The notes below the pieces were generated by a model. It ran no database searches and had not been told where the DNA came from. It was given only the letters and a program-made list of their open reading frames with translations. The translations under genes were made by a program, and so were the position numbers. From Cercozoa sp. M6MM (lineage: Eukaryota > Protista > Endomyxa: Ascetosporea), in assembly GCA_040357565.1 (NCBI GenBank), contig JBDODJ010000093.1: a stretch of 42,835 nucleotides of DNA; one strand, written 5' to 3'. Of this stretch, positions 2,873 to 36,139 are shown in pieces. The first letter of the stretch is position 1. Each line of letters starts with the position of its first letter.

Positions 2873-3775
2873 TTCCGGAGGCGCAAAAAATCGTTGTCTT
2901 AGTGCACAATGCACTCAGGTCGTTCTGTAGTCACTAGTTTCACAAGTTTTTAACTCACACAATGCGTGGTGAGAGAGCAGTGCATTTTTTGTACATCACG
3001 CATCCGGCACTCATGTGGCTACCACAGAGACCATGTGGCATTCCGACGTGTGCCAGAGTGTCGCTGCACCACCTCGGCCACTCTACACACGCCAACCCGA
3101 AATGCCCAGAGCCAGGGCCCAGAGCCCAAAAGTGCTTAGATTAGATTTGGGGCATGTGCAAGGGAGACTCAGAACTGCAGAAAGCCCGTTGCACACCTTC
3201 CGACACGCTCTCATGCTGCAACAAAATTGCTTTGCAAAAACAAAAACAGTCACTTGGCGCGCGTTTCTCCACACACAGCATGGATGACTAGTGACGCTTC
3301 TAGCATCAGTAGCATCTAAACAACATTCTCCACCCATTAGATTGAGCCAAACCTCTAATTGCGCTACTGTACAAGTACACGGGGAGGGTGCGCTGGTACT
3401 GCTTCTGGGCACTGAACAGCGTGCTCAGGCATGTGCTAGGTGCGTTCACTGAGAATATTTAAGCGAAATAGACTCTAATAAACATCGATGTGTGATGGTA
3501 CCCAGTGTACCGTGATGTGCATGTCCTTTGTCAGTTCCTTCAATTGTGCGTCAATCTAATCCATCTCTTTGTTCTGAGGTGTTGTCAGGTGCAGGATGGT
3601 TCCTTTGTTGTCAATCAGGAGCGTGGAGCACGATACGTAACAACTGCGTCCTAGGTTTGCGTTCAGGCAGACCCACTCGCCCCCCAAAAGTCTGACATGT
3701 AGTAGAACTAAAATTGACTCGGTAATCTCTGACCTCTCCACTCGCCATACCGACTAGATGCAGTTTAAACGCGGC

Positions 3776-4223
3776 CTAACCGGTGCGGCAGCCGACGCCC
3801 GGGTGCTCGTCCTCGTCGTCGTCGTCGTAGCTCTCGCGTGCCTCGTGCCTGGCGCGCTGCAGCTCGGCCTCAATCTGCGTGTGCGACACGTGGACGGCCG
3901 TGGCGTCCTCCTCGTGGTCAGCTACGTCACACACCACGCTCCAAGATACACACCAACACACCAACACACCAAGAGACAACACCTGCCAAGGTACCATCAT
4001 CGACCATGGCGCTCTCCTCATGATCCTCGTCCTGCTTGGGCAGCACGCTCAGCAGCTGCTTGCGCACCTTCTGCGACAGCGAGGCCGGGAACTGCACGTC
4101 GAACTTGATGAAGAGTGAGCCGCGCGTGAAGCTGCTACGCGGCACCGGCATACCTTCGCCTTCAATCTACACGGGGGGGGGGTAACAGGAGGGTGGGTAA
4201 AAGCTGCCTACACACGCACACGC

Positions 4224-4277
<54 letters not shown>

Positions 4278-4550
4278 TCTTGAAGGAGTCAGGCTCAGTG
4301 ACGCCGGTGTCGCACTTGACGACGAGCACGCGGCCGTCGAGGTGCTTGACCTTCATCGTGAAGCCGCACAGCGCCTGTCGCAGCGAGATCTGCTTCGACA
4401 TGAACAGGTGCTGGCCCTGCCGCTTGAACGTGTCGTGGTCCTTCTCGCGCAGAATCACCACCACGTCGCCCGGCACGTAGCCTGTTGCACCACCAAGATC
4501 ATCAGGGAGGCACACACGCAAGGCACACACCAAGCTCACTCCTCTCCCTC

Positions 4551-4589
<39 letters not shown>

Positions 4590-5858
4590 ATCGGGTACCC
4601 GGCTTCTGGTCGGCCTCCTGTTCCAGCACGACGCGCTGGCCGTTACGCATGCCGCTATGTACACACACACACACATACATGACACGCACACATACAACAT
4701 GGCAGGAGTATGGAGGGAGTGTATATCTAAAACATGAGTACCGTCCAATGTGGATCGAGTGGATCTTGGCCTCGCTGACCACACCTAAGCACACAACACA
4801 AGGCGCTATACACCCGAGTCACCAAGGAGACAGACAGAAAAGCTACCGCGGCCAGAGCAGCCGCCGCAACGCTTGTCGCGCGGCAGCACCTCACCGCTGC
4901 CGTCACACGCATCGCACGGACGCTGCACCTGCTGCACCATGCCCGGGCCGATCTGACGCAGCTGCACGATGGCACCGCGGCCGCGGCACGTCGTGCACGT
5001 CGTCTTCGTGGCACCGTCTTTGCCGCCCGAGCCTTCGCACAACTTGCAGATCACCTTGCGCGTCACCTTGCACTTTTTCGTGGCGCCATTGTACAGGTCC
5101 TCCAGCGACTGAACAAACACGCACCTTGCCTATCATTTCGGCAGTGCAAAGGCTTTCTACGTACCACGTTAAGTTCGAACTGCACGTTTTGCGTCTTGCG
5201 CGGACCACTCGGCTGCGTTAAATCAGATCAAGGTCTTACTCCTTCTTCACACAGATTAGTGCAACAAGGTGCACCCCCCTGCGGCCGCCAAACATGCTGC
5301 CAAAGCCTCGCGGACCGCCCTCCGGATCGCCTGTTTACAGAGATAATTGTCGTGGATGCTTTCTCTATCTCACATGAAAAACGTACCAAAGTTGTCGTAG
5401 TTCTCGCGCTTTTGCGGATCGCTGAGCACCTCATAGGCCTGTCCAGACGCTTACATAATTAAACATGGACATTAGGCATATATAATATAAGAGAAAATGT
5501 CACCTTGGTGATCTCCTTGAATTTCTCGGGGTCGCCGCCTTTATCCGGGTGGTGCTTCATCGCGAGCTTGCGGTAGGCCTGTCACAACAATCAACTCAAT
5601 CCACTACGATACAATCACAGATTGGGGTAGAGCAGTGTCAGAATGCACCTTCTTAATCTCACGTTCCGAGGCACCCTTCTCCAGACCGAGCGCCTCGTAC
5701 AGCTTCGTGTCGCCCGGGTTACCGCCTTTTTAGTGTACCAAAAGCCAACAATGAGCAAAAACAGCAATACACTACAGAGCGACAAGGAAACGAGTACCGC
5801 CCATGCCACCCATGCCGCCCGGCATACCGCCACCGCCAAAGAAATCCTCGAAGAACAT
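3776..5858 (-). CDS. DNAJA: Type I DnaJ/Hsp40 (DNAJA/Ydj1-like)
   Basis: Spliced MFFEDFFGGGGMPGGMGG..., J domain LYEALGLEKGASEREIKK/AYRKLAMKHHPDKGGDPEKFKEI, four CxxCxGxG motifs (CKLCEGSG, CTTCRGRG, CDACDGSG, CGGCSGRG), C-terminal domain PGDVVVILREKDH...ISLRQALCGF, and a terminal CaaX-like CRTG*. Confidence 0.95.
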
Positions 5859-6349
5859 CTGCTACTGCGCTCAAGACACTCGTAAAGATCTACAGCGACG
5901 AGAGCGAAAAACAAACACAAAACACAAGCGAAATTTCCACCAAAACAAAGCGAAATTTCGACACGATCAATGGATTAAATAGGCGGCTAAAACGCACAAC
6001 ACAAGGTTAGCCCGCGCGCAAATCAAACCTAAAAACTCAAGCACACACTCGGCTGGTCTGACCTGGGCGTCCGGACAAACAGCGAAGTTTCGAAAGTCGA
6101 TTTCGGTGCGTTCAAAGCATGCTAACGTGAACCTACAGTGCGTGGGTGTCCTTCGCGGTTTATAATGCCGTCGCAAATGGACTCTGACAGGGAGATGGTC
6201 AATCAAAACGAAAAATGCCATTTGTGACGTCCAACGGACGGTTGGAGCGCTGCTTGGTTTCAAAAATATAAAAACTGTTCCAGCTTGACGGAGCGCAGAT
6301 CAGCCAGTCCTCTGTGTAGACCAACCTGCATAAGTCGAAGGATAACACA

Positions 6350-7716
6350 ATGGTAGTGAGATCTTGCAGGAGTGTGGTCTACACAGAAAAAATGAATTTG
6401 CTTGACTTGCTTTGTCAGACTTCAGTGCTGAGCGAGGTTCGTGGTCTCCGAGGCGGTGTCAATCTGTCCAACATTCGTCGAAGGTATGGAGGGAGTAGGC
6501 GTGGTTGTAGAGTGCAGGATATTGGTGTGTATAGAGACCCGAGCGTGCGCGAGCTGCTGGCTTCGGCGCGGCATGTGCACGTGTTCGCCATGCAGCACGC
6601 CACGCGCACCTGGCAGGAACAGAAGGTGTGTCGGCTTTTCTTGAATAGCCCTGTTGTTCATAAACTGACTCAGGTGCCTTGCTGACAGGTCGATGGACCA
6701 TGTTTTCTGGTGCGCCGTTCCGAAGAGTACAGTGTTCCCTGATGTGCCCTCCTCCTCCCTCCCCCGGTATACGGAACTATGATAATAGGCCGCACTTCCG
6801 ATTGTGCGTCATGTCGCGTCAACGAGCGGCGTACTGGCTGCGCGATTTGTCTGCTGACTCTCTAGTCGAGTCGCAGGTATCAATAGACATACTTGCCACG
6901 AGGCAAGGTAGGTAGGGGTGTTGTACAGGGCGCCTACCTGTTCCTGCGTCTGTCGAAGCAAGGCGGCGAGGACAATGACCTCGCCTTGTGGCACTACGAC
7001 GCTGCTGATGTGCCGGCCTTTGTGGAAGCAGTCAAAACGGCGGTGCACCTGCTGCAGCAGACACGACTCGAACGAGAACACAGCAAGCGACCGTCACTGG
7101 CGCAGGTGCGTTGTGTTCTGCTTGCTCCCCCCTGCTCCGCCTCCCCTACCACCTGATGTCCGCACAGTCCATGACTTCGCCCATGTTGCGGCCATTGGTG
7201 CCTGCCTCGGCCTTGCGACAGTCACGGTGAGAGACACAACACACACACATATATACACACACACGCACACACACAGACAGGTGCATGCAGTTGTCCCCTG
7301 TGTACACTGTCTGTGATCGAGCAGGAAGCAGTACGACACCTACGTACCTCCGGCTGCTGCCCGGCGAGAAATGTCGGTTCTCGACTTGGACGACAATAAC
7401 GAAGACGGCAACGAAGATAGTGAGGAGTCTAGTAAGACTTCTGTCGTCAGCAACGGCACCAACGACGAGAGAGACGAAGCACTTGAAGACACACACGAGC
7501 TTCCCACTGCAAGCCCACCACGCAGGAGTGCTCTGCCGCAAGGCGTCCTCCTGTCGCCCGAATTGATTCAGCTCCTTCTCAATGGTAGCACACCAACTCG
7601 CTGTCTCTCGAATGTTTACATGTGAGTGTCACTCCCTGCATGCATCCGTTGCGTGTCTTGATGTAGGCGACGCGACACTGGAGCAGTTGTTTGACAAGTC
7701 CGACCAAATGTGTTAG
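6350..7716 (+). CDS. DCP1: mRNA decapping subunit Dcp1 (EVH1 domain) with low-complexity C-terminus
   Basis: Exons give NLSNIRRR/DPSVRELLASARHVHVFAM..TRTWQEQK/VDGPCFLVRR/PHFRLCVMSR/GAYLFLR...LALWHYD, matching the Dcp1 EVH1 pattern (NL..L.R.DP....IL..A..V.......W....VEG.LF...R). Stop TAG at 7714-7716. Confidence 0.8.
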
Positions 7717-7834
7717 TTCTGACATGGGTCGCCGGGCTTTCTGTTGTTTGAGGATTTCAAACGAAAGTGATCATGGTTCTTTCGATTAAACTTCATTAAC
7801 TAGCGCTTCGCTTACTGCACATGTCGAATCGAAG

Positions 7835-10114
7835 TCACTGGTAGCACGTGCGCACGTGAGAGAGCGCCTCTCGCGTGCTTTCGTCCCGCTGCTCAGGCGC
7901 GCGCACAGCAAGTTGCTGCGCCTCGTCGATCACGCTAACTCGGCCTGCAAAAAAAAAAAACACATAGGGCATCTGTCGCTGAGCTAAAGCAAGACAGATA
8001 CCGGACGCAGTGATCGCGACAACCCGGTCCTTGTTCTGCCAATGAAAGTTGGCTTCTTGTTTCGCAATTCACCCAAGAGATGAAAACTGCCACTTTACCT
8101 TTACAGAACAGACGTCCATGCCGACCCTAAAGCGATAGAGATAACAAGCATAGCAGGACAAAGCAGTGTCGGACAGTGCCATACCACCGAGAGTCGCCAC
8201 GCAGGCAACCACCGAATTGTCGTCTCACCTGCAAAAGACCATATTTCTTCTGCTTGTTGACCAGACAGCGAGGGGTTCTTACCTTCTTCTTGGCACCCAC
8301 ACGCTGGCACATAATTTCGCTGTCCATGCCGACTGTGTAGGCGAGTGGGCTGTTGGAAAAGCACGCGTAACACACGGGAAAGGGCGGTCGAAATACATGT
8401 TTTACAAAACATCCTTGTCGTCGAGTGGCTGCATATTGATGTCAACAGGCACGGCGTTACTCGGCGAGAAATGAAGTCCGACAATGTCAAACTTGGCACC
8501 TACAAGCCCCAGTCAACAAAACGAAGCTGCACACACACACACGCGCGCGCGCGCACACAACCCAAACTAAACAAACCGAGGCGCGCCTGCGACACGGTCA
8601 CCAGTCTCCTGGCGTCCATGACATACAGAACCTTATCGGCACCGGCACACGCAAAGTCGAAGGTGGCGACGCTGCTCTGGCCGCCCATCGCAATGCCACT
8701 GTACACATTGCACCGTTTGTGACAGCAAAAGCATCAAGTAGCTTAGTACGAAGGAACTGATGCGATGGAGTAGAGCGGAGTCATCGCGACACGTGCTGTT
8801 CATCACCATTAACTGTGCTTCAAGCACCTACTGCTTACAAGGAACAGATACCTCGTTGCTGTGGCCTGTTGCTTCGCACGTCCCTATCGCAAACAAAAAC
8901 ATACTTTCACCAAAGCAAAAAGCAAAGTGAGCTTTCTCGTACCACAGCGACACAACGCCGTTGCCTTCGCACACTGCGAATGCGTCTGGTGAGACCTGTT
9001 GAAACTGTACATTAAACAAACAACACGACAGATGCGACCAGGTACCGATGGAAGACCTGTGACGGCGTGTGCACTGGCAGCAGTGTGAAGACACATGATT
9101 TCGCGATGAGTCTCGACATCCACTTGCGTTACGATCCGTGACAAAGTGGAAGCAGTCAGTCTGTGCTCAAGCAAGCAGTAAAGTTACAGTGTCCATCCAC
9201 GATCGAGAGATGACACAACTCACAATCGGTTCTGGTCCCTCATGGAGCACACTCGCGCAGGACCAAAGTCAGTGACAGTGGCATCACGCACCACTGTCCG
9301 CAAGGGTTGAGTGCGACGCTTTTTTGAAACCTGTTGAGGCTTCGAATCGTCGCCTTCAACTTCGTCTTCAACGCGAGTGTCAACGACAGTGATCACAGTC
9401 TTGTGGCAGCCGTCAACGGAAGCGATCACAGATCTGTCGCCGTTGTTTCCAACACACGAGATAGACTGAACTTCGCGCCGGTGAATGTGCCGAGTTTCGC
9501 TGCATTCACACCAAAGCTAAGCCACAACAAAATGTAAGACATGTCAACAAAGCTACCTCGCAGTGGAAGCACTCGCATCAACTGAAACGCACTCAACTGA
9601 GACGCGAGACAGCGGAACTGGCACCTGTCTGAGGCAAAGCGAATTAGCGCATAGATCGAAATCATTAAAGTTGCGATACTTTGAGCACAGCGGTCCTTGA
9701 CGACCAAGTTGCAAGTCATCAATGGAGATGCTGAAGAATTCAGAAAAAGAGATCGACATTCGCGCAACAAACCAGCCAGACTTACTCGGGAAGCGCTGCC
9801 GTCACCACAGACACCTGGCATCCGTGGCCAACGGCAAAGGTTGACCGACGAGCCTGCAGCGAGTACGAATTGTCGGCAAAAAGGTTTGGATCAGCTGCCA
9901 AACTACCTCATTGGCGTCGGCGTGTAAGATAGTCAGTCGGTCTGATGGGAGAGACCCAGCTGATTGCGCGAACGACGAGAACGCAAACGAGTATACAGGA
10001 GCAAGCAACATGAATTACAACCAATCGTGTAGCCCAGCGCGCGTTTCGCGCCCTCGCTGCCGAGCCTTTGACAAATAAGGGTGCGTTGGGAAGAATATCC
10101 AGCTGCTGGGTCAT
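7835..10114 (-). CDS. Multi-exon WD40-like protein
   Basis: Series of minus-strand exons with beta-strand-like content (FACAGADKVLYVMDARR, VGMDSEIMC, LRGDSRWYG); last exon GRVSVIDEAQQ...TCYQ*. The start is tentative. Confidence 0.5.
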
Positions 10115-10254
10115 TGTTGGCGAATAAAGTTCAGTTGTGGGGCAAGTGTGTGGGCACAGTGTGCTCCTTTGGCTTGTGCTGCGTTCTGAGCCGGGTATGA
10201 TCTATCCAAAAAAAAAAAAATACATGTTTTTCAGCGATATCTTGGTTCGATAGG

Positions 10255-12670
10255 ATGAGTTCGCTGCGGCTTCATAGAGTCTCTCAGCCACGTATTTCTA
10301 GCGGTCAGAGTCAGCTTCGGCCTGGAAAGGGCAGCCAAACGAATGACGATCTTCCAACCTCGTTTGGTTCACCTGCTGTGAAACGTGTCACCACCAGCAG
10401 TGCTTTCGACGCACAAGATGGCTCAGTTGTACGCTTGACCTTGCTTCCAATTTTCCTTACTGCTTTTGTTAATCTACATCCATTAGACCACTGATGTCAA
10501 GTTCCAGCTAAATTTTGGAAAAGGGCAGCAACGTGTTTCAGTCTCAATGCCATGGATGTTCCACACTCTCTTTGACATCCACGTTCAGTACCTCCCGCTA
10601 CTTTGCATGAGTGCTCGATTTTAAAGACCAGTTTCGCAGGAACACTCAAAGGAACGATGAAAACGCGCTTGCTTTCAAACTATCGTTGGACCTGGTTTGA
10701 TTGAAGATCTATTGTGTGAAGGAAGAATCTACAGTTTCAAGAGCGGGTTTTGTTTAGGACGATAGTCAGTATCCAGAGAAATCCACGCTCACCAAGAGAC
10801 AGCAAATGCCGTAAAATTACAGATATTTATTTAATCTATCTCTGTCTGTATTTATTTAATACTGTATATATTTATTGCGCTTGTTTGTTTGATTGTGTTA
10901 CCCCCTCTCGCAGTGTCGTGCTATTAATGCGTGGTGTTAAACTCTTTGTGTCGGTCCATGTTGGCGACTTTCACATCTTAAACAAAGGTAACACTGTTCA
11001 CCCTCGCATACCCGTGGATATCAAGTGAGCTATATGAATACAGACCTGCCTTTGGACACGCTTATTCGTTTACCGTGGTAACTGGCCGTTTTTCTGTATC
11101 AACCTTGTGTATACGTGCAAGTGCATGTCGTAAATGCAGCAAGTTTCCGTCTCTGCAGTCGCCAGTTCGCGCCAGCGATTTCGATAAGTCTACTCTGCCG
11201 GTGTGTTTGCGTCTGCGCATGAAGGCGCGCAGTGGCGTTGATAGTCCGATCGAGTACTACCGACAAGACACGATGCAGCGCATCAGACATCGTACTCCAT
11301 ATGCCTCTCACACTCTGATGGTGTCGTTGCTAGAATGAACTCATGCTCAGACACGTCGAACAGTTTCCGTCGACGCGACACAACCATCCGAATTGCCCGG
11401 CAGTTTCTCGAAAAACAGGAGCAAATGCTCGAATTCGAACGCAGTGTTTTCCGGTACCCCCATGTGGCGTGTGGTTTTCTCTTTGCCCTGCACTGTTTCT
11501 CCGTAGCCAAAAAGGCCGCATAAAATCGGTGGAGCGTCGAACGCCTAAGAAGCCCTATTTCGGTCTGTCGGCCGCCGACCGCATGTCGGGCATGGATGAG
11601 CCACAAGCCAAGCGGCGCCGTGTGACGCCGTTGCGCGCCACTCCCAGGCACGGCGACGCTAACGGTGACATTGTCGCAGGCATCGTCAAGGACAACAATG
11701 GCGACCACTTCAAAGCACAAGCCAGCTTCGAGGCCGATCGCTTGGCGGAAGGCGTCTGGGGCAACTCATCGCCGGCGAGGACGAGCCACTGGAAGCACAG
11801 TTCGCCCCGACACAACGCAGGCAATCCTTTCTCGACGAGTCGCTCGCGTCTGACGCCCAAGAAGTCGGCGCATGTGACGCCGGTGTCACCACACGTGACA
11901 CCCAGACACGTGACACCCAGAAACGTAACACCCGGACAGGTGACACCCAGACAGGTGACACCCAAGCATGAGACACCCAAGCATGAGACACCCAAGCATG
12001 AGACACCCAGACACGTGGCATCAAAGTCAGTGACACCGGAGCACGTGCCAGCGTCGCCAGTGACGCGATCGGACCTGCCATTGGACGAACTGCCCAGTGG
12101 CCTGATCAATCAGAGCTGCACGTGCTACCTGAACTCGTACCTGCAGGTGATGTTCCACTTGCGCGTGTTTCGCGAACTCGTGTTCCGGGAGGCACTGCCA
12201 AAGTCGACTTTCTCGACGCCTCTGTCACCGGCACAAGTGCAGAAGTTTCGCGGAACGCTCCTGCAGCACATGCGGAAGCGTGTCAGTTCTGAGCAGCGTG
12301 TACCTTGCTGTTCATGTTTGAGTGTGTGTGTATGTGTGTTTATGTGTGTGTATGTGTGTGTATGTATGTCTGTGTGTCTGTGTCTGTGTTTGTGTGTGTG
12401 TGTGTGTTTCTGTGGGTGTGTTATTGGTGGATACGCATTATGACTGCAGCTTAAAACTTCGACGGACATTGTGAAGCGCGAAATCGACATCTGCGTGCGC
12501 AAACTGCGCGAACGCAACATCATGCGCGAGGTACTTATTGTGTGTGTATGCGTGTGTGCGTGTGTTTGCGTGTGTGTGTGTGTGTACGACACTGATGCTA
12601 CCCCAAATGCAGGTGCAGCGACTGTTCTACCGACTGGCCACCGCCGATGGCGTGTACGTTTCCTTCTCTT

Positions 12671-12706
<36 letters not shown>

Positions 12707-12731
12707 TGAGTGTGTGTGTGAGTGAGTGTGT

Positions 12732-12784
<53 letters not shown>

Positions 12785-15452
12785 TGTGTGTGTGTGCTGT
12801 GTTCTAGTCAAGCATCAAAGAGAATCTGCGCAGGGCTCAAAACACGCGACTGCTGACGGACAGTTTCGGCTGGTTCAACGATCAGACGTGTGCGTCGTTC
12901 CAATGTGTAGACTTGGCATCCCATACCATTGCACTTGCTTTTGTGTGCGTGTGCAGCACGACAGCAGGACGCGCAGGAGTTCGTGCGGCGGTTCTGGAAT
13001 CACCTGGACGAGAAGGTATGTCAATTGTACACGTGGGAGGTGTGTATGATGTTGGTGCCTGCGGCAGGGTGAGAAGGAGCTGACAAAACTGTTCGAGGGT
13101 TGCGAGACCTCGCGTATCGAATGCCGCCATGTGGATTTCACGTCGTGTCGCAGCGAGGATTTTCATGGTACAGAATAACAGACGAATGGACTGCACGAAT
13201 GAACAATGCAACTGTAACCCGGCAGACCTGTCGCTGCCGCTGGCGTCGGTGCGGTCGCTGCGAGGGGCACTCGATGGCTACACACGCGCCGAGTCACTGG
13301 ATGGGGGTAAGCGTTCCTTCCCTCCCTTCTTTTGAGAGAACAAAATGGGTGTCCTGCCACAGAGAACAAGTACGACGCCGGCAAGCATGGCAAGCAGGAC
13401 GCAACGAAGCGACTGACGTTCTCGCGTCTGCCCAAGGTGTGTCTTATTCCGTGCCATCACTTTGTGTCTACCCTACGCACCCCCTGAGACAGGTGCTGCA
13501 ACTGCACTTCAAACGCTTCCTCATGGACTGGCACACTGGTACATTCGTACTTTCGGTTGTTTGTGTATATACACAACATATTGCATAGAGACGGTCAAAA
13601 AGGACTCGCGTCGCGTTCAGTTTCCCTCGACACTTAAGTTGCACACCGAGGTTAGTTGTTAGTTTGTTTGGGTGTATTCTCCTTGATTAAGATGTTTTCT
13701 GCAGGACGAAAACGGCGAAAAAACTGAGCGCGAGTTTTCGTTCTTTGCGGCGATTTTTCACCACGGCGACACGATCAATCACGGGCACTACACGTACCAA
13801 CGATATTAATTGTCAGAGTTGCTTCTTTTTCTATTTTAAGCGCGTATTACCTTGATTAGGTGTGCGATTCGTGTTGCAAAAGATGTCAGTTTCTGTTCAG
13901 TTTGTGAAGCTTTCGTTTTCGCTTGTCTTCAGTCGTGCTTTCCTTTTCGCAGGTGATTCTAAACTTTGACGACACCAAGGTCACGCAGATACACGACCTG
14001 TTCGATAATCCGTCCTACAAGGTACAACACGTCGACAATCAATGGTTTTTCGTGTTGTGGCGTGAAGTTTTGTTGGAACAGAGACGCGCGTACTACGTTT
14101 TCTACCTGGACGAGGAGACCACCGCGGCGCAGTTCGGACACGAAGTTCACAATGTACTTTTTTCTCCAACAACCGACTCTACACCTTTTGTGATCTGCAT
14201 GCTTTGTGTGTTAGCTCCGCCAAATGCTGGCGAGTGAAATTCCTGCCGGTTTCGCTGATTTCTTTCACTCGGACGTAAGTTGTGTTTCTCGTCGTCGTAT
14301 TTGTTCACTTCCGTGCGGAAGTTTACCTTGGTTTCTTTGTAGGAAAACAAGGCAGAAAAACTCCGCAACGAGCTGTGGGATTCTGCTCGGTACTTGAGGT
14401 GTCTTGCTGTGTGACACAAGTGGATTTTCCTTTGTATTATAGCCAAGTCCAAGTTCCAGTTGTGAAACTGAACGATCTGATCGGCACATCGCTGGTAGCG
14501 CTTTTGTGAGTTTTGAGTTTTTTTTTTTTTTTTGTGATTCCGATCGCTGGCGCAGGTGGGCAGTGCGCTGGATTACGCGAAACACAAATCGACGCAATGT
14601 TGGCTGGTACACGCACTATGTATTTTGTTCGAGTTCTCTCGTTAAATTCGCTCGTTGCATAGCACCCGAGAACTGGTCTGCACGTTGATGGCATTCCGTC
14701 CGAGCGACTGGTAGCGTTGAGTTCTCTGAACAACCACAGTGAGGCACGCGTGCATGTGTGTGTGCATGTGTGTGTGTGTGTGTGTGTGATGTTGTGGATG
14801 TGGGTGTATGTGTTGATTTGGCAGGCGACGTTCATGATGACCGGTAGTAATTTAGTGCCCCTAGACGAAGGCATGCTGCGCGACTATGTTGACTACGTTA
14901 TCGATAAGGTAGAATGCTTCCGAATACATGTGCTGGTTGCTTGATTTTTATTGTGTTTTAGGGTGGAACAAAGGTGTTATTGCTCGCTGCTGACAATGCC
15001 GACTGGGCGGTACCAGTTGCCTCCTATATCGATATAAATATAAATTGAGTGTATGTCCACATGCATGCTTTTGTCCTGACGGTTTGTTGCAGTCCCAGAA
15101 TGCGCGCGTGCTGTCGCATATTCGCGAGAAGATCGATCCGCGCGACCCACGCTTTACTGAAACAGGGTACCTTCCGTCCCTTTCTCTATTGTCTAAGTCT
15201 CTCGTGTTACGTGTGCCTCTGCATAGCGATGTGGATACCTTTTCCAAGAACGCCTTCCTCGTGCAGAGGCTAGCGTACGCTACCGTGCTTTGTGACGGCA
15301 AGAGAGTGCTGCGTGACGGCCAGAGGGTGTTGAAGAAGCACCTGGAGAGCATTCGAGAGCTTGGTCGGGTGCGCCATAGCTTCGTGCTTGAGCTGCACAA
15401 GAACTGTCGTGAGGTTGGATAATCCGTATCTCTGTGTGTGTATACAGGGGCA

Positions 15453-21349: not shown

Positions 21350-22728
21350 TCACTCAGGCTGCAGGTTAAACAGCAGTTCGTTGCGCCGGTGCAGTCGACG
21401 CAGCCAGGCAGGCCGTGTGTCAGATGGCGTGCCGTGAGAAGGCATGTCATGAGGTATCGACGGCCTGCCTGTGTTGGAGGAAGAAGAGCGCGCCGGAACC
21501 ATGAGGTTGGGCGAACGCGAGACCTCACGGCGCAGCGGTCCGTCCTTGGCGTTGCCGACACCGGCGCACTCGTCGAAGGAAGGCTCGACGCCAAAGTCGT
21601 CGCGCAGCTCGCGTGCTGGCAGCTTGATGGCCCACCAGAGTCCAAAGGCGAGCCAGCGCTGCCGTAGCCACCAGTGCAGGCCGAACCACTTGGACTCCAG
21701 TCGCTCCACATCGACCGACGTGATACGCACACAGCGCGCCAGTTCCAGGTCGAAGAAACGCTGCAGTCGATCGCACAGGTGCGGCTCTATTGTCAGCACC
21801 TTGAGTTCCTTCGCGTTTGCGAAACTCAGCGCTGTCCGGGGGGGGTAAGGGGATAGGATAGAGGGGGTATGGGGTACCGTCCAAATTGAAGGTGCCGAGC
21901 ATTGCCAATCGTCCATCAATCAGCAAGTTCTATCAGGGGTGGGGTAAGAGGGGGGTAAGAGAGGGTAAGAGGGAGGAGTAAGAGGGGTAAGAGGGCAGGG
22001 AGCACCTTGGCATGCAGCTCGCGCGCAGCGTACTCGTAGAGTTCGGCGCCGCACTCGTGCAGTATGCGCGAGTAGTAGGCCACGAAGGCGAAGCGTCCGA
22101 GCGGCTCGTCGCACTTGTCGCCGCTCGTCATGATGCGCACGCGCACGCCGCGCGACACTGCGTCCTTCAGGGCATCCAGTATCGGCTCTGCAGCCCATAG
22201 GTTAGTCCATACACGAGTCCATAATTTAGTCCTGTCCATACACGAGTCCATCTGTACCAGGTGGGAACAAATACGGCGACATGATATCGATGCTGTGTCG
22301 AGCGTTATTGATACTGTTGAGTAGTGCACGTTGGATCTGTCCGTGTCGAAGCACCGGGTTGCTGCGCAGCACCTGCAGCACCGCCCACTCGCGCGTGCCT
22401 CGCAGTCGCACATTGTCCTGCGACGGACCGCACAGACCCACCGACGGGTCCTGGGATAGCCGGGTATAAAGGGTAGAATAGGGTAGGGTAGGGTAGGGTA
22501 GGGTAGGGTAGGGTAGGGTAGGGGTAGGGTAAGGTAGGGTAGGGTAAGGTAGGTAGAGTAAGGTAGGGTAGGGTAGGGTAAGGTAGGGTAGGGTAGGGTA
22601 GGGTAGGGTAGGGTAGGGTAGGGTAGGGNNNNNNNNNNNNNNNNNNNNNNNNNNNNNNNNNNNNNNNNNNNNNNNNNNNNNNNNNNNNNNNNNNNNNNNN
22701 NNNNNNNNNNNNNNNNNNNNNNNNNNNN

Positions 22729-22772
<44 letters not shown>

Positions 22773-25700
22773 AAGCTACCACTCCGGTCGAAGCACTGCC
22801 GCAGCGCCCACACGGGCAAGGCGCGACTCTTGTGACTCCGCATTCGCGCCGTCTCCTTCACCCTCTTGGGCCAGTACTTCTGCGCACACGGGCAGGGGGT
22901 AAACAGGGGGGTAAACAGGGGGGTAAACACGCACCTCAGGCATCTTGGAGGCAATGTGTGCCACACGCGACACCACCGATCGATCTGCAATCAGAGAAAC
23001 CGTCAGTCCAGCTCAGTAAGAAACCGTCCCCAGTCCTCAGAAGGATCAGTATCAACACAAGAGAAACGCACCGAGCATTCGTCGGTACATTGCGAGAGGA
23101 TACGTCTGTGATTTGTTATTGGCTACACACAAGGTGTACGGTCCATTTGGACCAAAAGAAATGGACAGTCCGCAAGTACCACGTAGTAGCCGCACACGGC
23201 GCAATCGCATCGCCAGTTGCCGCACGCGCTGACGCAGCATGTGCCGGTGCAGAAGCGCGTGCACCGCCGCTCTTCTCTTCCTGCCGGGGGGGGGGGGGTA
23301 AAGGGTAAAGGGGTAAAGGGTAAAGGGGTCAAGGGGTAAAGGGGGTCGGGGGTAAACACACCGCTGCACCGGCGTCAGCGTCTTCTTGGTCTTGCGAATC
23401 GCTGGCGGCGGCCGGCGCTCGCGGCGCGACGACACGCCGGGCTGCACCACCGGCCTTACCTTCAGACGACCGCTCTTGTCGCGAATGTACTTGCCCTTGA
23501 GAGCCACTTCCTCCTGCATCTGCGTCACCAGCTCACGCACGCGGTACAAGTCTGTGCGTTGCGAGGCCTTCTCGCCCTCCACTCGCACCACCGGCTTCAC
23601 TGACGGCGAATTGAAGCGATGAACGCTCTCTTGCCGTATCCTGTCCCAGCATGCACACACAGCACACTCCAGGATACAGCACACTCCAGGATACACACTC
23701 AACTGCTCTACAAACTCCTGATATCACTCAAAATTAAAACGCACAAACCGTCACATGCAAACTGCAAAACCGTCACTCAAAAATCAAAAAACCAAAAACA
23801 CACAGCTACCGCTCATTGACGCGCCGTAACTCTTCTCGATCGTACTCACGCAACGGCTCGTACTGAAACAGCCCCTTGTCGTTCTCAAGCAGCTCGAGAC
23901 GCTTCTGGACCTCGGATTTTTCGGGCTCCGGCTTCACGCGCTTGCGCTTACGCAACCGTTTTCGCTTTTGTGGTCGGCCACGCTTGTTTTTGGCCCGCTT
24001 GTGCCTGTCATGTGCGTGTGGCTGCACGAAGCGTGTCCTGGAGCCGCTGCTTTTGACACCGGCCGACCGCCGATCGCGGATCATTTGGGCCAAGTCGTTT
24101 GGGTGGTCGAGTAGCCACTCACACATTAATTCGCTTTCCTGCAAAACACACAGGATACAGGCGGTGCTAAGACTATCCAGGTGCGCGTGGGTAGTACTGA
24201 GAAGGCATCAGAAAGCTGCTGGACGGCAGGGCCCTCGATTCGCATGTGCATGTCACAGAAGCGTGCCGTGCCGAATCGCTGCAAAACAAGCGAGAGAGAT
24301 AGGTCATTTAGAGAGTGTGGGGAGGGGGAGGGGTCTACCTGGCCAACGTAGTCGCCGCCGAGATTCATGCCGCCAGTGAAGCCGACAGTTCGGTCGACCA
24401 CGAGGAGTTTGCGGTGATCGCGCCGAAATTTGTTCAGCGCGAATCGCGGCAACCGCAGCGGCAGCAGTCTGCGGGGGGGGGGTAAAGGGGGTAGGGGGGT
24501 AAAGGGGGGTAGGGGGTAAAGGGGAGTACCGCATTGGCTGCAGCGACGGTGCGTTGAACGCGTGTACTCGCATGAACGGCAGATTCACAAAGGTCTACAG
24601 TAGGCACACATAGTCACTGAGTGGTCACTGTATGATTACTAAGTGATCACATAGTCACTGAGTGGTCACTGTCTGATCACTAAGTGAGCACAGGGTACCT
24701 GACGGTGCATCAACTGCAGCAGCATCGGAAACGAGCCCAGGAAGTCCAGCACGAAGCGCACGTCGACGCCCTTGCGCGCAGCCATGCAGAGCTCCTTCAC
24801 CCTAGGGGGGGGGGGGGAGGACGTGGGGAAGAGGGGGGGTAAGACGGGGGGTATAAGTCTACCGAACAGCGCGCCACATCTCCGCAAAGGCGCGATCGCC
24901 AAACAGAAATTTGACCTACACAGAGGGGTAAGGGATAAAGGTAGGAGGGTAAAGGGGTAAACACCCTCGTAGCCAGCGTCAGCGTCGGCATTTCGCGTCG
25001 CCTGTTTCGATCGTGCCACTTGGACTGCAGGGGGTAAAGAGGGGTAAGGGAGGCCAGAGGGGTAAAGCGGGGGTGAAGAGGGGGTGAGGGGAGTAAAGAG
25101 GGGAGTAAAGAGGGGGGTAAAAAGGGGGGTAAAGAGGACCTACCGTGTGAAACTTCTGTGGCGACAGCAGATACGAAGTCGGTTGCGGCGGCTGCAGTCG
25201 CTTCTGCCGCTGCTGTTTGAAGCGCTTCCACGACGCACTCACCTTGCGTCTGAGGAGGGGGTAAACAGGGGGGTAAACAAGGGGGTAAAATGAGGGTAAA
25301 GTGAAGGAAGCCGGGGTAAACACGCGGGGGGGGGGGGCTAAAGAAAGAGGAGGGAGTACGCAAGTGCACTGCCGCGGTAGGCCAGTTTCGATCTGAATCG
25401 CGCCGTGTCCATGCGATGCTTTATGTGCTTCAGTGCCTGCTCGGTAAGGGGGTACAGGGTAAGGGGGTAAACAGGGGGGTAAAGGGGGGGTAAGGGGGGG
25501 GGGGGTAAACCTTTGGCGCACGCAGACGCGCGAAGAAACGCCGCATGCGCGACTTGGGAGCACTACCATACACACAAAGAGATACAGTACTGGCTACAAA
25601 TACTGGCTACAAGATACACTATGTCCAATGGACAACACACACACGGAATGGACCATAGTCTGTACATGGTCTTGACGAAGGACGGAGCGTCGTAGCCATG

Positions 25701-26487
25701 CACCAGGTGCCGCAGTCGCCGTCGCATCGACAGCGGTGCCTGGGGTAAGGGGCAAGGGGGTAAAGAGGGGTAAAACGGGGGGGGGTAAAACACAACGCAC
25801 CCGAAAGAGCGGCTTGCGCTCGCCGAGAGTCGGAGGCGCGCGCGCACTGGACGGCGCGTCCAGCAGGCGGCGCATACGCATGCGCAGGTTGGTGGCACTG
25901 TACCTGTGACACACACACACATCAGTCACATCAGTCACACGTGGTCACACATGGTCACACACATGGTCACACACGTGGTCACACACTGACACTCGCACTG
26001 TGGTACTTTTCGAAGGACGAGACACGTGCGTGCTCTGTCTGCAGCCGCAGGTCCATGAGCAGGCGACGCCACTGCGGCCGCGGGTCCGCGCGGTTGAAGT
26101 AGAAACCGCCTCGCCGCACGTACTCACGCAGCGCGCCCAGCAACGTCGCCAGCTGCCCGGACGCCGGTCGCACTAGCGCCGGCATGCGCACGTGCTGTCC
26201 GCGCGGAGGCTGCACCACCACGCGGCCATGTTGCGCCGTGTCCACAATTCGTCCGCGCGGTATCAAATCTCCCGGTTTCGTATTTGCAGCCAAGCGCTGC
26301 ACGTCACGAAACTTCATGCTCCACCGACACGCCGGCACTGCATCTGGCCTTGCCGATCGCGTCTTGTTTTGCGAGTTAACCACCGTTCGCCACCAACTCT
26401 TATGCAGTATTTTTGTACCAAATGAGCCAGCACCAGTTTGACCACTAAATCCTTGGGTTTTTGGTCAGCGAGCTGCTCGAACAGCAT
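21350..26487 (-). CDS. Bacterial-type cardiolipin synthase-like phospholipase D family protein (two HKD motifs)
   Basis: AFAEMWRAVR, AARKGVDVRFVLDFLGS, HKD1 RDHRKLLVVDRTVGFTGGMNLG, DMHMRIEGPAVQQL, INNARHSIDIMSPYLFP, LKDAVSRGVRVRIM, HKD2 LHAK|NLLIDGRLAMLGTFNLD (split by an intron). The N-terminal exons splice in frame from ATG 26487. Confidence 0.85.
22471..22628 (+). repeat. (TAGGG)n telomere-like array inside an intron
   Basis: About 30 GGGTA units with occasional GGTAA variants; ends at an N gap. Confidence 0.9.
22629..22728. other. Assembly gap (others at 15528-15537 and 29739-29838)
   Basis: N runs, each flanked by simple repeats inside introns. Confidence 0.99.
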
Positions 26488-33348: not shown

Positions 33349-33358
33349 TAACCCATGA
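33349..33358 (+). promoter_or_regulatory. Candidate snRNA upstream/proximal sequence element (TAACCCATGA)
   Basis: Lies about -72 to -63 from the U1 start, where snRNA USE/PSE elements usually sit. Supported by position only. Confidence 0.35.
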
Positions 33359-33420
33359 CCTGCGTTGCTTGACGAAAGCAGCTGCTCAAAACAGGGAAGC
33401 GGCTTGGTCAAAGCCCAAGT

Positions 33421-33586
33421 AACTTACCTGGATCATTGCGGGGTTGGGTGATCACGCAGGCCCTCCCCGTAGCGCTGAGCAGGGCCTCAAGCACTTGGTC
33501 GTCTGTGACGCGTTCACCTCGCCTTCGGGTGTCGTGGTGATTCTAATCTCTACAGCGGGATCGGCGAGCTAGACTCCTGGTCCTGG
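33421..33586 (+). ncRNA. U1: U1 spliceosomal snRNA
   Basis: 5' ACTTACCTGG. Helix H GGATCATT/GGTGATTC. SL1 TGCGGGG..GGGT/GCCC.CCCCGTA with loop GATCACGCAG (U1-70K site). SL2 with GCAC loop, SL3 with cUUCGg, and SL4 GGGATCGG/CTGGTCCT. Length ~165 nt, followed by T8. Confidence 0.92.
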
Positions 33587-33612
33587 ACCTCCCTACTTTT
33601 TTTTGTTCTGTT

Positions 33613-34003
33613 GCCACCCGGGCCGTGCCGTTACCGACAAGCCAGCAACGACACCGCACACCGGGACACAGTGCAGCCCATCAAGGTAATCTTCCTAAAC
33701 TCGCATGATTAGAAGAAAGCTCGCCAAACAGTTCGATTTTCTTCTGCACGTCGCCAAACAGCGCGAGCCATGGCAGATGGCCTAAACTGAATTGATGGAG
33801 TGATCGATCGTCCATAAATCGATCGATACGGGTGCTAAAAACCCAAGCTCCGTACAAGCTAGAAGGTATGGCACGGCGTTGCGATCTTCTGACCACGGTG
33901 AATTAAATTTATTGCAACTCCCAACCAGAGAATTGGGTACCTGATCGGAGCACCCGTGGTTGCGTGGATCGCTGATCGTATCGTTAGTACCAGGCACGTG
34001 GCT
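33613..34003 (+). ncRNA. Unassigned highly structured RNA candidate downstream of U1
   Basis: About ten nested complementary segments, with G-U pairs that work only on the plus strand, repeated loop motifs and no convincing ORF (see findings). Confidence 0.5.
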
Positions 34004-34192
34004 GGTTTGAAACGAAACGAAACGATCCAGTCGGTCAGTTGCAGCCGTTTTGCAATCGCACGTGCCTGTTTTTGCAGGAGGTACCGAGTGAGAGAACAGC
34101 GCTCGCTCCGGTTCGCGTCGAACTCACACCACTCATATTTTGTTGTTTTGCGTTGTTCCTCTTTAGTTTCTCTCAGTGCGCTCAGTGACAGC

Positions 34193-35639
34193 ATGAAGCT
34201 TGTGTTGACTACGTTGTTGGCTGCCTCGAGTGCGCTCGCTGCCTCCTGCGCCTCTCATTCAGTACTACCTCGTTATTGACTGGATGCACACACACGGATG
34301 CACTCTTGTTTCCGATCAGGCGACCTTCTCCTCGAGCAGCAGTGAGTTCACTCTGCGCGGCGCCATGACCGTACTGCATTCTCACCTTCCCCTTCCTTCG
34401 GTCCCCGGAGTTCCGGCGCAATACAATGCATGGCACTCTCTCACTGAGCAGGACTGCATCGCTGACACCGTCGACGACGTTGGCAAGCAACAGCGCTGCA
34501 CTGCTGTTCTGCACGAGACTCCTGCAGGACAGTACGCGGTCACGTGCTACGAGCATTCGTGTACTATGTTCGCTATGTTCGATCTCTCTCACACACACGC
34601 ACTTCCCGGACTCGAGCTGAATTCAGCTGCTAAATATATACCACCTTGCCCCCCCCCGCCTCCGCTGCCAATTTCCCTTGTTCAGCGTCGTGCCCTGCCA
34701 ACCAGTCTGTCGCCGCCACTGCCGCTGGCGTTCCTTCCACTGATGTCGTGCTTCACGCTGCTTGGTACAGTGCACACACTCTCAAATCTGGCCCTACTGT
34801 AAGTTTACCTTGCCCATGTTTCGACAGCGGCACCCAAGGCCAGTCGCTGACGTCGCCGTACGGAGGTCGCCAACACGTGTGCCGCAAGGTCTGTATGTTT
34901 CCTTTAAATTTGCTGTATCTAAGCTCAGCTGAAGTGTTATTTTGACTGCTTGGCGCGGCAGCTCGTGCGGCCTTCTACAGTCACTCCATTACGTTCTCAT
35001 ACGGTGCGTTCCTGTCAGTGTGTGTGTGTGTGCAGTGACTGTGACAGCGAGTGGCCACTGTGTTATCTGCTAACGTGCGTGTATGGATAGTGCCGCCGGG
35101 CGAGGACTACGTCGAAACGTGCCTGTCGATGTGCGCTACCGCCGACGCGCTGAACCCGACGAATGAGAAACTCGACCGCATTCTGCTGTCCTCCAACGGC
35201 TCGAGCAAGTATTTACTTACTTTTATTTCCATTTCCGGACGCAGTCTCGGAAGATCGGAGATGTATTGAGTGAGTGCATGCCTGTAAATTGATGTGATAT
35301 GCAAACTGCAGTGATGTCAAGTGCTTCTGCGCCACTGCCGCGGTACCTTTGATTGACTCTACTGAAGTCATGCCAGTCGGTTGAACGAAAGGGGTATGTG
35401 TGTCGTGTGCAGAACACGGAAGCCAACGTGCTTGGCACCTGTGCGTACAAGGACGTACGTTTCTTCGCAGTTTGTCTCAGTGTAGTGCACATGTATCTTT
35501 CCTTGCTTCTGTGCAGTGCCCGATTGCGCCGGGCTCGTGGTACCAGGCCAAGTGCGGCGACGGACTCGGCGACGTCCCGTACTACGACACTCACCAGGAA
35601 GTCACCGTGTACACCAACACAATGGCTGTGTCGTCGTAA
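34193..35639 (+). CDS. Secreted cysteine-rich hypothetical protein
   Basis: MKLVLTTLLAASSALAASC signal peptide; many short Cys-containing exons ending CPIAPGSWYQAKCGDGLGDVPYYDTHQEVTVYTNTMAVSS*. Confidence 0.65.
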
Positions 35640-36139
35640 ACGAGACCCGACACTGTAAACTACTGCCTAACTGGCAACGGCGCGGTGAGCACAAGAGCGA
35701 CTCTGTCGTCGCTTTCCTGACCGTTCATAGCGATTGTTTTAGTAAGTTCTGAAGAGATAACGTAAGTTTAGTTGCCAGTGCATTGGGTCTGTACTTAAAT
35801 TAATTCACGCTGCCGTCAGTGCCGGTGTGTTCAATACTTGTCTTGCTGTTTAAATCCGGGTCGTCTGCTCGAGTGCAATCGCACCTGGGCGACCTCAGTT
35901 CAGTTGTGGAGATCTTAGTAGAGCGGTTTCTCCAGCCAGGCCACAAGTGACTAGTGACTCTGTTGGGGTGACTTTTATGTATTGTTTTGTATTATTTAAA
36001 GTTACCAATACATCTAATGACGCATGAAAATTGGGAAAAAGTGTTGAGTTCTGTGAAAATTGCAGCTTACGCAACTGCGATGTTCTCGTGGTAGCATTAC
36101 TTTTGAAAGGTAATATGGTAGCGACGTGGCGTGCGTGGA

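Follow-up and report, generated by a model that had tools for sequence, protein, structure and literature searches.

A likely divergent U2 snRNA behind U1 in the rhizarian amoeba Lemnamoeba sinaloensis, and signs of co-changed intron branch points

The region directly behind the U1 gene of contig JBDODJ010000093.1 (Cercozoa sp. M6MM; the 42,835 nt analyzed are referred to as the window) is probably the middle of a tandem spliceosomal snRNA cluster, composed of U1, a possible U4 and a strongly diverged, rewired U2. Judged from its sequence, the segment from 33937 to ~34135 (plus strand) is likely a divergent U2 snRNA, and the 3′ end of a 390-nt unit (33613–34003) that the first-pass annotation had delimited here most likely represents the 5′ third of this gene. 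The divergent U2 is probably accompanied by co-changed branch points, with UGNAU replacing YUNAY. A more far-reaching reading, in which a naturally orthogonal major spliceosome, a genome-wide shift to UGNAU and the cutting of U4 and U2 from one transcript are combined, is rather doubtful.

The source organism is now named Lemnamoeba sinaloensis. This rhizarian amoeba, of which a culture and a chromosome-level assembly exist, has a genome of 27 Mb in which genes contain 13 introns, with a mean intron length of 82 nt and a median intergenic distance of 162 nt (PMC13746701); the passages of this paper that were consulted mention neither snRNA nor Rfam, Infernal or ncRNA, and those on introns give no branch motif. 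The U1 gene is real yet divergent: Rfam U1 matches at 33420–33585 with 32 bits (gathering score 69.5, E 6.6e-6), and the alignment to a comparator protist U1 (z 5.4) is matched by 0/200 shuffles. The gene (33421–33590, plus strand) has a canonical 5′ end (ACUUACCUG) and is followed by a run of eight T (33597–33604). Its atypical Sm site (AAUCUCUAC, 33544–33553) and its loop II (AAGCACUU) both deviate from the Rfam consensus. A USE-like element on the same strand (AACCCATGA, 33350–33358), a putative promoter element, places a CCCAT core 69–70 nt upstream of the U1 start and is similar to the published USEs of Blastocystis (AACCCRTAA) and Plasmodiophora (GNCCCAYW; PMC8287931). Downstream of the cluster, a multi-intron gene (34193–35640, plus strand) encodes a cysteine-containing protein of ~230 aa with a signal-peptide-like start and without Pfam match; the annotations of two further contigs of this organism include near-identical copies (P0121, P0122).

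The U2-like gene (33937–34135, 3′ end uncertain) was read as such by eye, and the evidence for it comes from alignment to a comparator U2 and a joint profile-structure test. U2 position numbers (33–38) and helix names follow common usage and the Rfam consensus. The order from 33937 onwards is 5′ end, GC at the position of helix Ib, GAUC, hexamer, GUAUC, GUU and stem IIa. Compared to the protist U2, 9/12 positions are identical at the 5′ end and 25/47, with one gap, from helix Ib to stem IIa, where the changes in IIa preserve pairing. Alignment and fold place the stem-loop I equivalent at 33950–33963, and the alignment further places the U6 helix Ia tetramer GAUC at 33967–33970 and the branch-point recognition hexamer at 33975–33980 (all plus strand). 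The latter reads AUCGUA, i.e., A at position 33 and C at position 35, where GUAGUA is canonical, and sits in a BSL-like hairpin (33971–33988); the canonical GTAGTA was not found in 33600–34020. Stem IIa (ACCAG/CUGGU with an 8-nt loop, 33989–34006, plus strand) agrees in position and loop length with five comparator U2s. At 34059–34068, ten nucleotides perfectly complementary to the loop and 5′ strand of IIa provide a stem IIc partner, directly followed by the Sm-like GUUUUUG (together 34059–34075, plus strand, from the helix list). The IIc partner of the comparator U2s likewise lies directly before the Sm site; the spacer between IIa and IIc/Sm measures 60 nt in the U2-like gene vs 31–35 nt in the comparators. 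Mutually exclusive stems IIa and IIc are an established feature of U2 (PMC8516221), and the U2-like gene has such a pair with the IIc partner beside the Sm site.

In the stem-loop III position, the folds show a hairpin after the Sm site (34083–34112, plus strand), downstream of which no canonical stem-loop IV loop was found; the stretch 34076–34150 folds no better than shuffles (z 0.25). Further oddities are the G at the start of the Sm site and a G instead of the expected U in helix Ib. The unconstrained fold of 33937–34135 is a long hairpin (−72.3), compared to −51 to −54 when IIa or IIc is formed and the core is kept open. In the unconstrained fold, a (GAAAC)n run following stem IIa (34009–34027) pairs back onto the branch-recognition region, a modelled arrangement that may resemble an internal branch-site mimic.

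Comparators were obtained with a U6 pattern that retrieved 15 loci on eukaryote-like contigs in prokaryote bins, and from one further cluster in metagenomes; Rfam identified U1, U2, U4, U5, U6, U3, SRP, 5S and tRNA genes on the comparator loci. The eukaryotic ncRNA clusters in prokaryote genome bins (G006:C5 (L028) 3162–14543, as well as L012, L017–L020 and L023) are probably binning contamination. One of these unrelated eukaryotic contigs, G006:C5, provides a precedent for the arrangement of the locus, with U1 and U2 head to tail at a distance of 137 nt and U4, U5, U6, SRP and 5S close by.

Plain local alignment of the comparator RNAs to 33600–34020 did not rise above shuffles. A descriptor of IIa, IIc and Sm site, written with the candidate in view, recovers 4/5 comparator U2s and matches at 33994/34068; it yields five matches in the window if IIc has at least 8 bp. 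In the joint test, a descriptor match also had to reach a U2 5′ profile score of 7.9 or more; 9.01 Mb of shuffled window yielded three such matches with IIc of at least 6 bp and none with at least 8 bp, i.e., a false-positive rate of at most ~3e-7 per base. The only other joint match in the window is a TG repeat (12346–12406). The chance of a joint match within the 600 nt behind U1 is ~2e-4, before correction for the ~ten RNA families tried by eye and for the descriptor's having been fitted to a known candidate. The 5′ profile alone ranks the candidate 84th among the window peaks (113th with other smoothing). U2 was not detected by Rfam (RF00004) on 33930–34160, and a covariance model from five sequences, run with filters off, gave seven chance matches, none of them at 33937–34135. 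Since neither a model match nor GUAGUA was found, the two usual tests of U2 membership, the gene is filed as a likely divergent variant rather than a proven member of U2.

Pairing of the 5′ end of the U2-like gene with the 3′ tail of a comparator U6 (helix II) reaches −8.6, a value attained by 2.4 % of random 15-mers (P 0.024). This pairing depends on the U6 used, none of which is the organism's own: with seven other foreign tails P ranges from 0.00 to 0.42, three being at or below 0.02 and four above 0.1. Helix I pairing to a foreign U6 is not above background, since 15.8 % of random 17-mers are as good (P 0.16). A U2 reading of the minus strand gave z 3.3 in one of 39 tests and was rejected as noise, a U4-vs-U1 control having reached 3.5; a decayed U2 copy in the upstream part was ruled out (281/300 shuffles).

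The hexamer AUCGUA in place of GUAGUA predicts branch sites with G at −2 and U at +1, i.e., UGNAU. C35 of the U2-like RNA would pair with intron G(−2), A33 with U(+1), G36 with U(−3) and U37 with R(−4), and the A of UGNAY would be bulged to act as branch nucleophile in the first splicing step. Stems IIa and IIc would alternate, as they do in other U2s, and U6 would be paired by the 5′ end. Transcription of the U2-like gene, the ends of its RNA, Sm binding, the IIa/IIc switch, U6 pairing and branch use of the UGNAY A are all predictions from the genomic letters.

Spliced alignment of two proteins provided 13 introns, 12 of them usable, with GTA-type donors and without a YTRAY consensus; six of the 12 carry YGNAT with the A at −34 to −14. 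A gene model without a branch term predicted 149 introns, 145 of which lie outside these 12; it recovered 4/12 known introns and missed the downstream gene with eight introns. Among the new introns, 39/145 (27 %) contain TG.AY with the A at −28 to −18, compared to 23.3 ± 4.6 in local dinucleotide shuffles (0/300 as high) and 23.0 ± 3.9 upon rotation (0/500 as high). This interval was picked after viewing the 12 known introns and the histogram; in the wider interval (−34 to −14) 54 introns have the motif vs 40.5 expected (1/500). Leaving out TGTAY, the motif is still enriched (24 vs 14.3, 4/300). Ranking of 64 patterns in 105 introns of 50–120 nt without simple repeats places TG.AT first and the canonical CT.AC 40th. 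The branch-recognition region is complementary, with a bulged A, to the motif of these predicted introns: in the intron pairing score AUCGUA beats 200/200 shuffles, while GUAGUA is equalled by 134/200. The motif is specific for the A (42/111 inside vs 116/772 outside the interval, p 6e-8), and a purine occupies −4 in 34/42 vs 63/114 cases (p 0.002). By gene, TG.AY is found in 17/44, 5/15, 2/14, 4/18 and 11/54 introns, thus strong in one gene and absent in another (2/14). Decoy YAG sites show a smaller excess of TG.AY (61 vs 52 of 600; 88 vs 74 of 500 that are TG-rich). The predicted donors mostly read GTA followed by C at +4 (GTAC in 58/149), a mismatch at +4 to the canonical pairing end of U1.

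The segment directly upstream of the U2-like gene (33746–33937, plus strand) can tentatively be read as a divergent U4 snRNA, based on cofolding with a comparator U6. The first-pass annotation had pointed to a second CCCAT resembling the element before U1, and this likeness holds: the second USE-like element (AGCCCATCA, 33675–33683, plus strand) predicts a start at 33746/33747 by the U1 spacing, i.e., the same 69 nt to a plausible start. The motif ARCCCATSA occurs three times on the plus strand and never on the minus strand of the window, which is weak evidence since the motif was defined from the two USE-like copies themselves. From this start, a stem II partner (33750–33765), an expanded 5′ stem-loop (33767–33872, with tandem GA/GA at 33776–77 and 33862–63), a stem I partner (33880–33888), an Sm-like site (33906–33914) and a 3′ hairpin (33920–33937) succeed each other on the plus strand; the Sm-like character of AAUUUAUUG, already noted in the first-pass annotation, is upheld. 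The best-ordered domain (33765–33875, plus strand) consists of a long stem that leads into a three-way junction bearing two hairpins (z −4.14, 0/200 shuffles, MFE equal to centroid); its z was reached by 0/161 random 111-nt tiles, with borders chosen after the fold had been seen.

Cofolding of 33746–33900 with the comparator U6 yields the Y-shaped U4/U6 fold unforced, with stems I and II each at about P 0.04–0.05. The binding energy (−9.6) is matched by 19/60 shuffles, in a test of low power, since a genuine U4 cofolded with the U6 from the same contig is itself matched by 4/60. A U4 descriptor at the candidate's own thresholds gives six matches in the window and 353 in 7.0 Mb of shuffles, 13 of them with CCCAY. 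Stem II is weaker than in real U4s (−17.5 vs −24.3 and −28.7), and the K-turn drawn by eye is a tandem GA/GA beside a 4-bp stem without standard C-stem or 3-nt bulge. Neither Rfam nor a covariance model from two sequences matched U4 at the candidate. As in the layout of U4 (RF00015), the stem II partner comes first, followed by the 5′ stem-loop with tandem GA pairs, the stem I partner, the Sm site and the 3′ hairpin; the candidate differs in its ~105-nt branched 5′ stem-loop, the weak split stem II, and the lack of a canonical K-turn, of a large 3′ stem-loop before the Sm site and of a spacer before U2. The upstream 190 nt would then represent a U4 whose 5′ stem-loop is enlarged and whose transcription is driven by the CCCAT at 33677. 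Since there is no spacer and CCCAT is absent 69 nt upstream of the U2-like start, the two RNAs would share a precursor, or a U2 promoter would lie within the upstream RNA.

In the first-pass annotation, 33613–34003 was taken as one undescribed 390-nt RNA exposing a repeated loop motif, possibly a protein-binding scaffold or sponge. All 29 stems and motifs listed for it are exact in letters and position, and its assignment as plus-strand non-coding RNA sequence in an snRNA locus behind U1 is retained, the latter being confirmed by the Rfam match. The boundaries were not upheld, since the U2-like gene begins inside the unit at ~33937 and extends ~130 nt beyond its end. Likewise, the closing helix CGUGCC/GGCACG finds no support: it draws on the loop of stem IIa in the U2-like gene, for which a better 10-bp partner lies at 34059–34068, outside the unit. 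The supposed absence of a U2 or U4 signature was not confirmed, as both layouts appear once divergence is allowed. Folding of the plus strand (−125.6 kcal/mol, z −2.46, equalled by 2/100 shuffles) exceeds that of the minus strand (z −1.75), but is modest compared to the window: among 105 tiles of 390 nt, scored with 8–12 shuffles each, ten reach z of −2.4 or lower, the candidate among them. Tiles at 2413, 16453, 19963, 27763, 28153 and 35173 have z of −3.3 or lower, based on few shuffles. The best helix of the unit (−18.3) is equalled by 19/200 shuffles and 17/105 tiles. The letters of the ten proposed nested stems are present, yet the stems are in part mutually incompatible (G33767 is used twice), and forcing all ten gives −107.8, ~18 kcal/mol worse than the MFE; G-U pairs, ascribed to several stems, occur in three of the ten.

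The repeated motif itself (CC(U)AAAC-like, copies A–F, 33694–33840, plus strand) is present at a frequency not above background in this repeat-rich genome. Its 11-mer pair is real, but the window contains 22 places where an exact non-simple 11-mer reappears within 60 nt, and five copies of a 6-mer (up to one mismatch) in a stretch of 156 nt are reached by 48/274 tiles and 9/150 shuffles. Four of the six copies are mostly unpaired (0.81–0.99) and the remaining two about 0.6. Copies A and B fall into the presumed promoter gap, C into the U6-pairing 5′ end of the U4-like RNA, and D to F into loops of its large stem-loop.

A single 390-nt RNA presenting its loops to proteins in multivalent fashion is therefore very improbable. 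The plus-strand folding energy, the mostly unpaired motif copies and a 10-bp helix (33622–33631/33868–33877) predicted at probability 0.94 are compatible with it, but repeat and helix lie within background, the interval from U1 to 33613 is too short for a promoter, the unit runs into the U2-like gene at its 3′ end, and searches of metagenome, prokaryote and viral collections yielded no homolog. Instead of such an RNA, the U2-like and U4-like layouts are present. Also improbable is that the stretch consists of spacer or promoter sequence without function, or forms the margin of a duplicated segment, with a chance likeness to U2 and an intron motif reflecting TG-rich composition. The negative results of all U2 covariance models, the near-identical copies of the neighbouring downstream gene on two other contigs and the slight TG.AY excess at decoy sites point in this direction; the low joint false-positive rate and the persistence of the intron motif against two nulls and upon removal of TGTAY argue against it, as does the length of the gap behind U1 (~600 nt), which is long vs the median intergenic distance of 162 nt (PMC13746701).

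Two alternatives retain a U2 at the locus. One assumes two U2s, the local gene being a specialised or minor variant next to a canonical U2 elsewhere, with separate UGNAU and YURAY intron classes. A canonical-looking YTRAY peak at −16 to −12 (15/145 introns vs 6.5 in the null, 0/300), with both motifs in only six introns, suggests that a second, standard U2 may exist elsewhere. This bin was, however, picked after viewing the histogram, 12 of its 15 members are YTGAY, and overall GUAGUA pairing stays at background, so that two U2s are unlikely. The other concerns only 33746–33937 and is compatible with the U2 reading: this segment may well not be U4, but a U5-shaped RNA, a 5′ extension of U2 or an unrelated Sm-class RNA. 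It is strongly ordered, its U4 binding energy is not above shuffles, and it has U5-shaped features (branched stem, loop GCUAAAA, CCGU on the 3′ side, Sm site and hairpin). In the related Mikrocytos, Rfam lists only U2, U4 and U6, but no U1 or U5 (PMC10245619, as excerpted), and U5 can thus be hard to detect in the lineage. Against U5, the invariant loop CCUUUUAC is missing and the U5 covariance model finds nothing, which led to its rejection; in favour of U4, both U6-pairing stems appear in U4 order in the unforced cofold.

The branch-recognition region of trypanosomatid U2s is also deviant. The preferred reading, a divergent U2 at 33937–34135, shares with U2 (RF00004) the 5′ end, the helix Ia GAUC, the GUAUC/GUU spacer, stem IIa with its 8-nt loop, the IIc partner beside the Sm site, the hairpin after it and the tandem position behind U1. 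It differs by AUCGUA for GUAGUA, a longer stem-loop I and IIb region, the G-initiated Sm site, the lack of a canonical stem-loop IV loop and of CCCAT at U1 spacing, and a score below covariance-model detection. According to the consulted parts of the respective reports, compensated changes have been described in other settings. U12 of Physarum polycephalum underwent two compensating branch-binding changes matching TTTGA branch points (bioRxiv 10.1101/2020.10.12.336362); this is the minor spliceosome, whereas the candidate would be a major U2, in which position 35 faces the normally conserved U(−2). In Entamoeba and Mastigamoeba, U1, there an snRNA that standard searches miss, co-evolved with donor sites (bioRxiv 10.1101/2022.06.08.495308), likewise a compensatory change of snRNA and intron signal, but between U1 and 5′ splice site instead of U2 and branch point; in contrast to these, the candidate locus has a canonical U1 pairing end despite its mostly GTAC donors. 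That A35-to-C together with G(−2) can work is indicated by an engineered orthogonal human U2 with C35, functional with branch sites changed from UN to GU (PMC13019295); the latter is a laboratory construct with ACU recognition, while the candidate would be natural and keeps U34 and G36. Divergent snRNAs of Giardia were identified by pairing potential, and dicistronic ncRNA precursors are cut into pairs there (PMC3510501); Giardia U2 retains GUGUAGU, the candidate does not, and no common processing motif was identified at the candidate locus. A natural branch change of major U2, or snRNAs of L. sinaloensis, were not found in the open-access literature searched.

Few features of the major spliceosome are as constant as the branch-recognition hexamer of U2 and the U located two bases upstream of the branch A; in a survey of 50 species, WCTRAYN described every lineage that has strong branch points (PMC2483917). 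If true, a compensated change in nature, with ~13 introns per gene, would mean that the major branch code is rewritable across a genome, and it would become testable how such a switch crosses its intermediates and what SF1, SF3b and Prp8 must alter. It would further account for the failure of standard Rfam scans to find snRNAs in lineages of this kind, and a UGNAU-type branch motif could serve gene finders for the group. Without the branch change, the locus would represent an ordinary, though divergent, snRNA cluster.

Several other identities were considered for the region and rejected. Rfam gave no match at gathering score for the whole window and, for sub-regions at E of 10 or lower, only U1 and chance microRNA or lncRNA fragments; a tRNA was not found in the window. 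In case of RNase P/MRP, P1-, P2- and P4-like pairings can be drawn, but CR-IV, expected with A1, G2 and A7 before P2 (PMC13184271, as excerpted), reads GCGUGGAU, CR-I is absent and Rfam is negative; the terminal helix at 33746 is not unique, as other starts close too. SRP RNA (helix 8 motif absent, alignments to four comparator SRP RNAs not above shuffles), U3 snoRNA (boxes C and D absent, alignment to one comparator U3 not above shuffles) and U11/U12 (U12 branch-binding motif absent) were dismissed as well; minor spliceosome components were not identified in Rhizaria (PMC11347168, as excerpted). The candidate pairs with U1 no better than shuffles do (68/100). A coding function of two minus-strand ORFs was discarded, one having no homolog among proteins of similar length and the other a single, pairwise unsupported match to a repetitive protein. 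Homologs of the repeat motif numbered zero in both metagenomes and prokaryote genomes, and its four matches in viral contigs lie in unrelated repeat-rich sequence, apparently by chance. A U1-shaped pattern retrieved one unrelated snRNA cluster from metagenomes and five viral loci without Rfam match, a U6 pattern no loci in viral contigs.

Telomerase RNA was rejected too, since as template for TAA[G]n, a motif at some contig ends of L. sinaloensis (PMC13746701, as excerpted), only the 5-mer TTACC at 33631 on the plus strand is available. The complement of this motif, TTTACCCC/TACCC, is encountered elsewhere in the window: the introns of a minus-strand gene at 21800–25800 are full of TTTACCCC and TACCC repeats.
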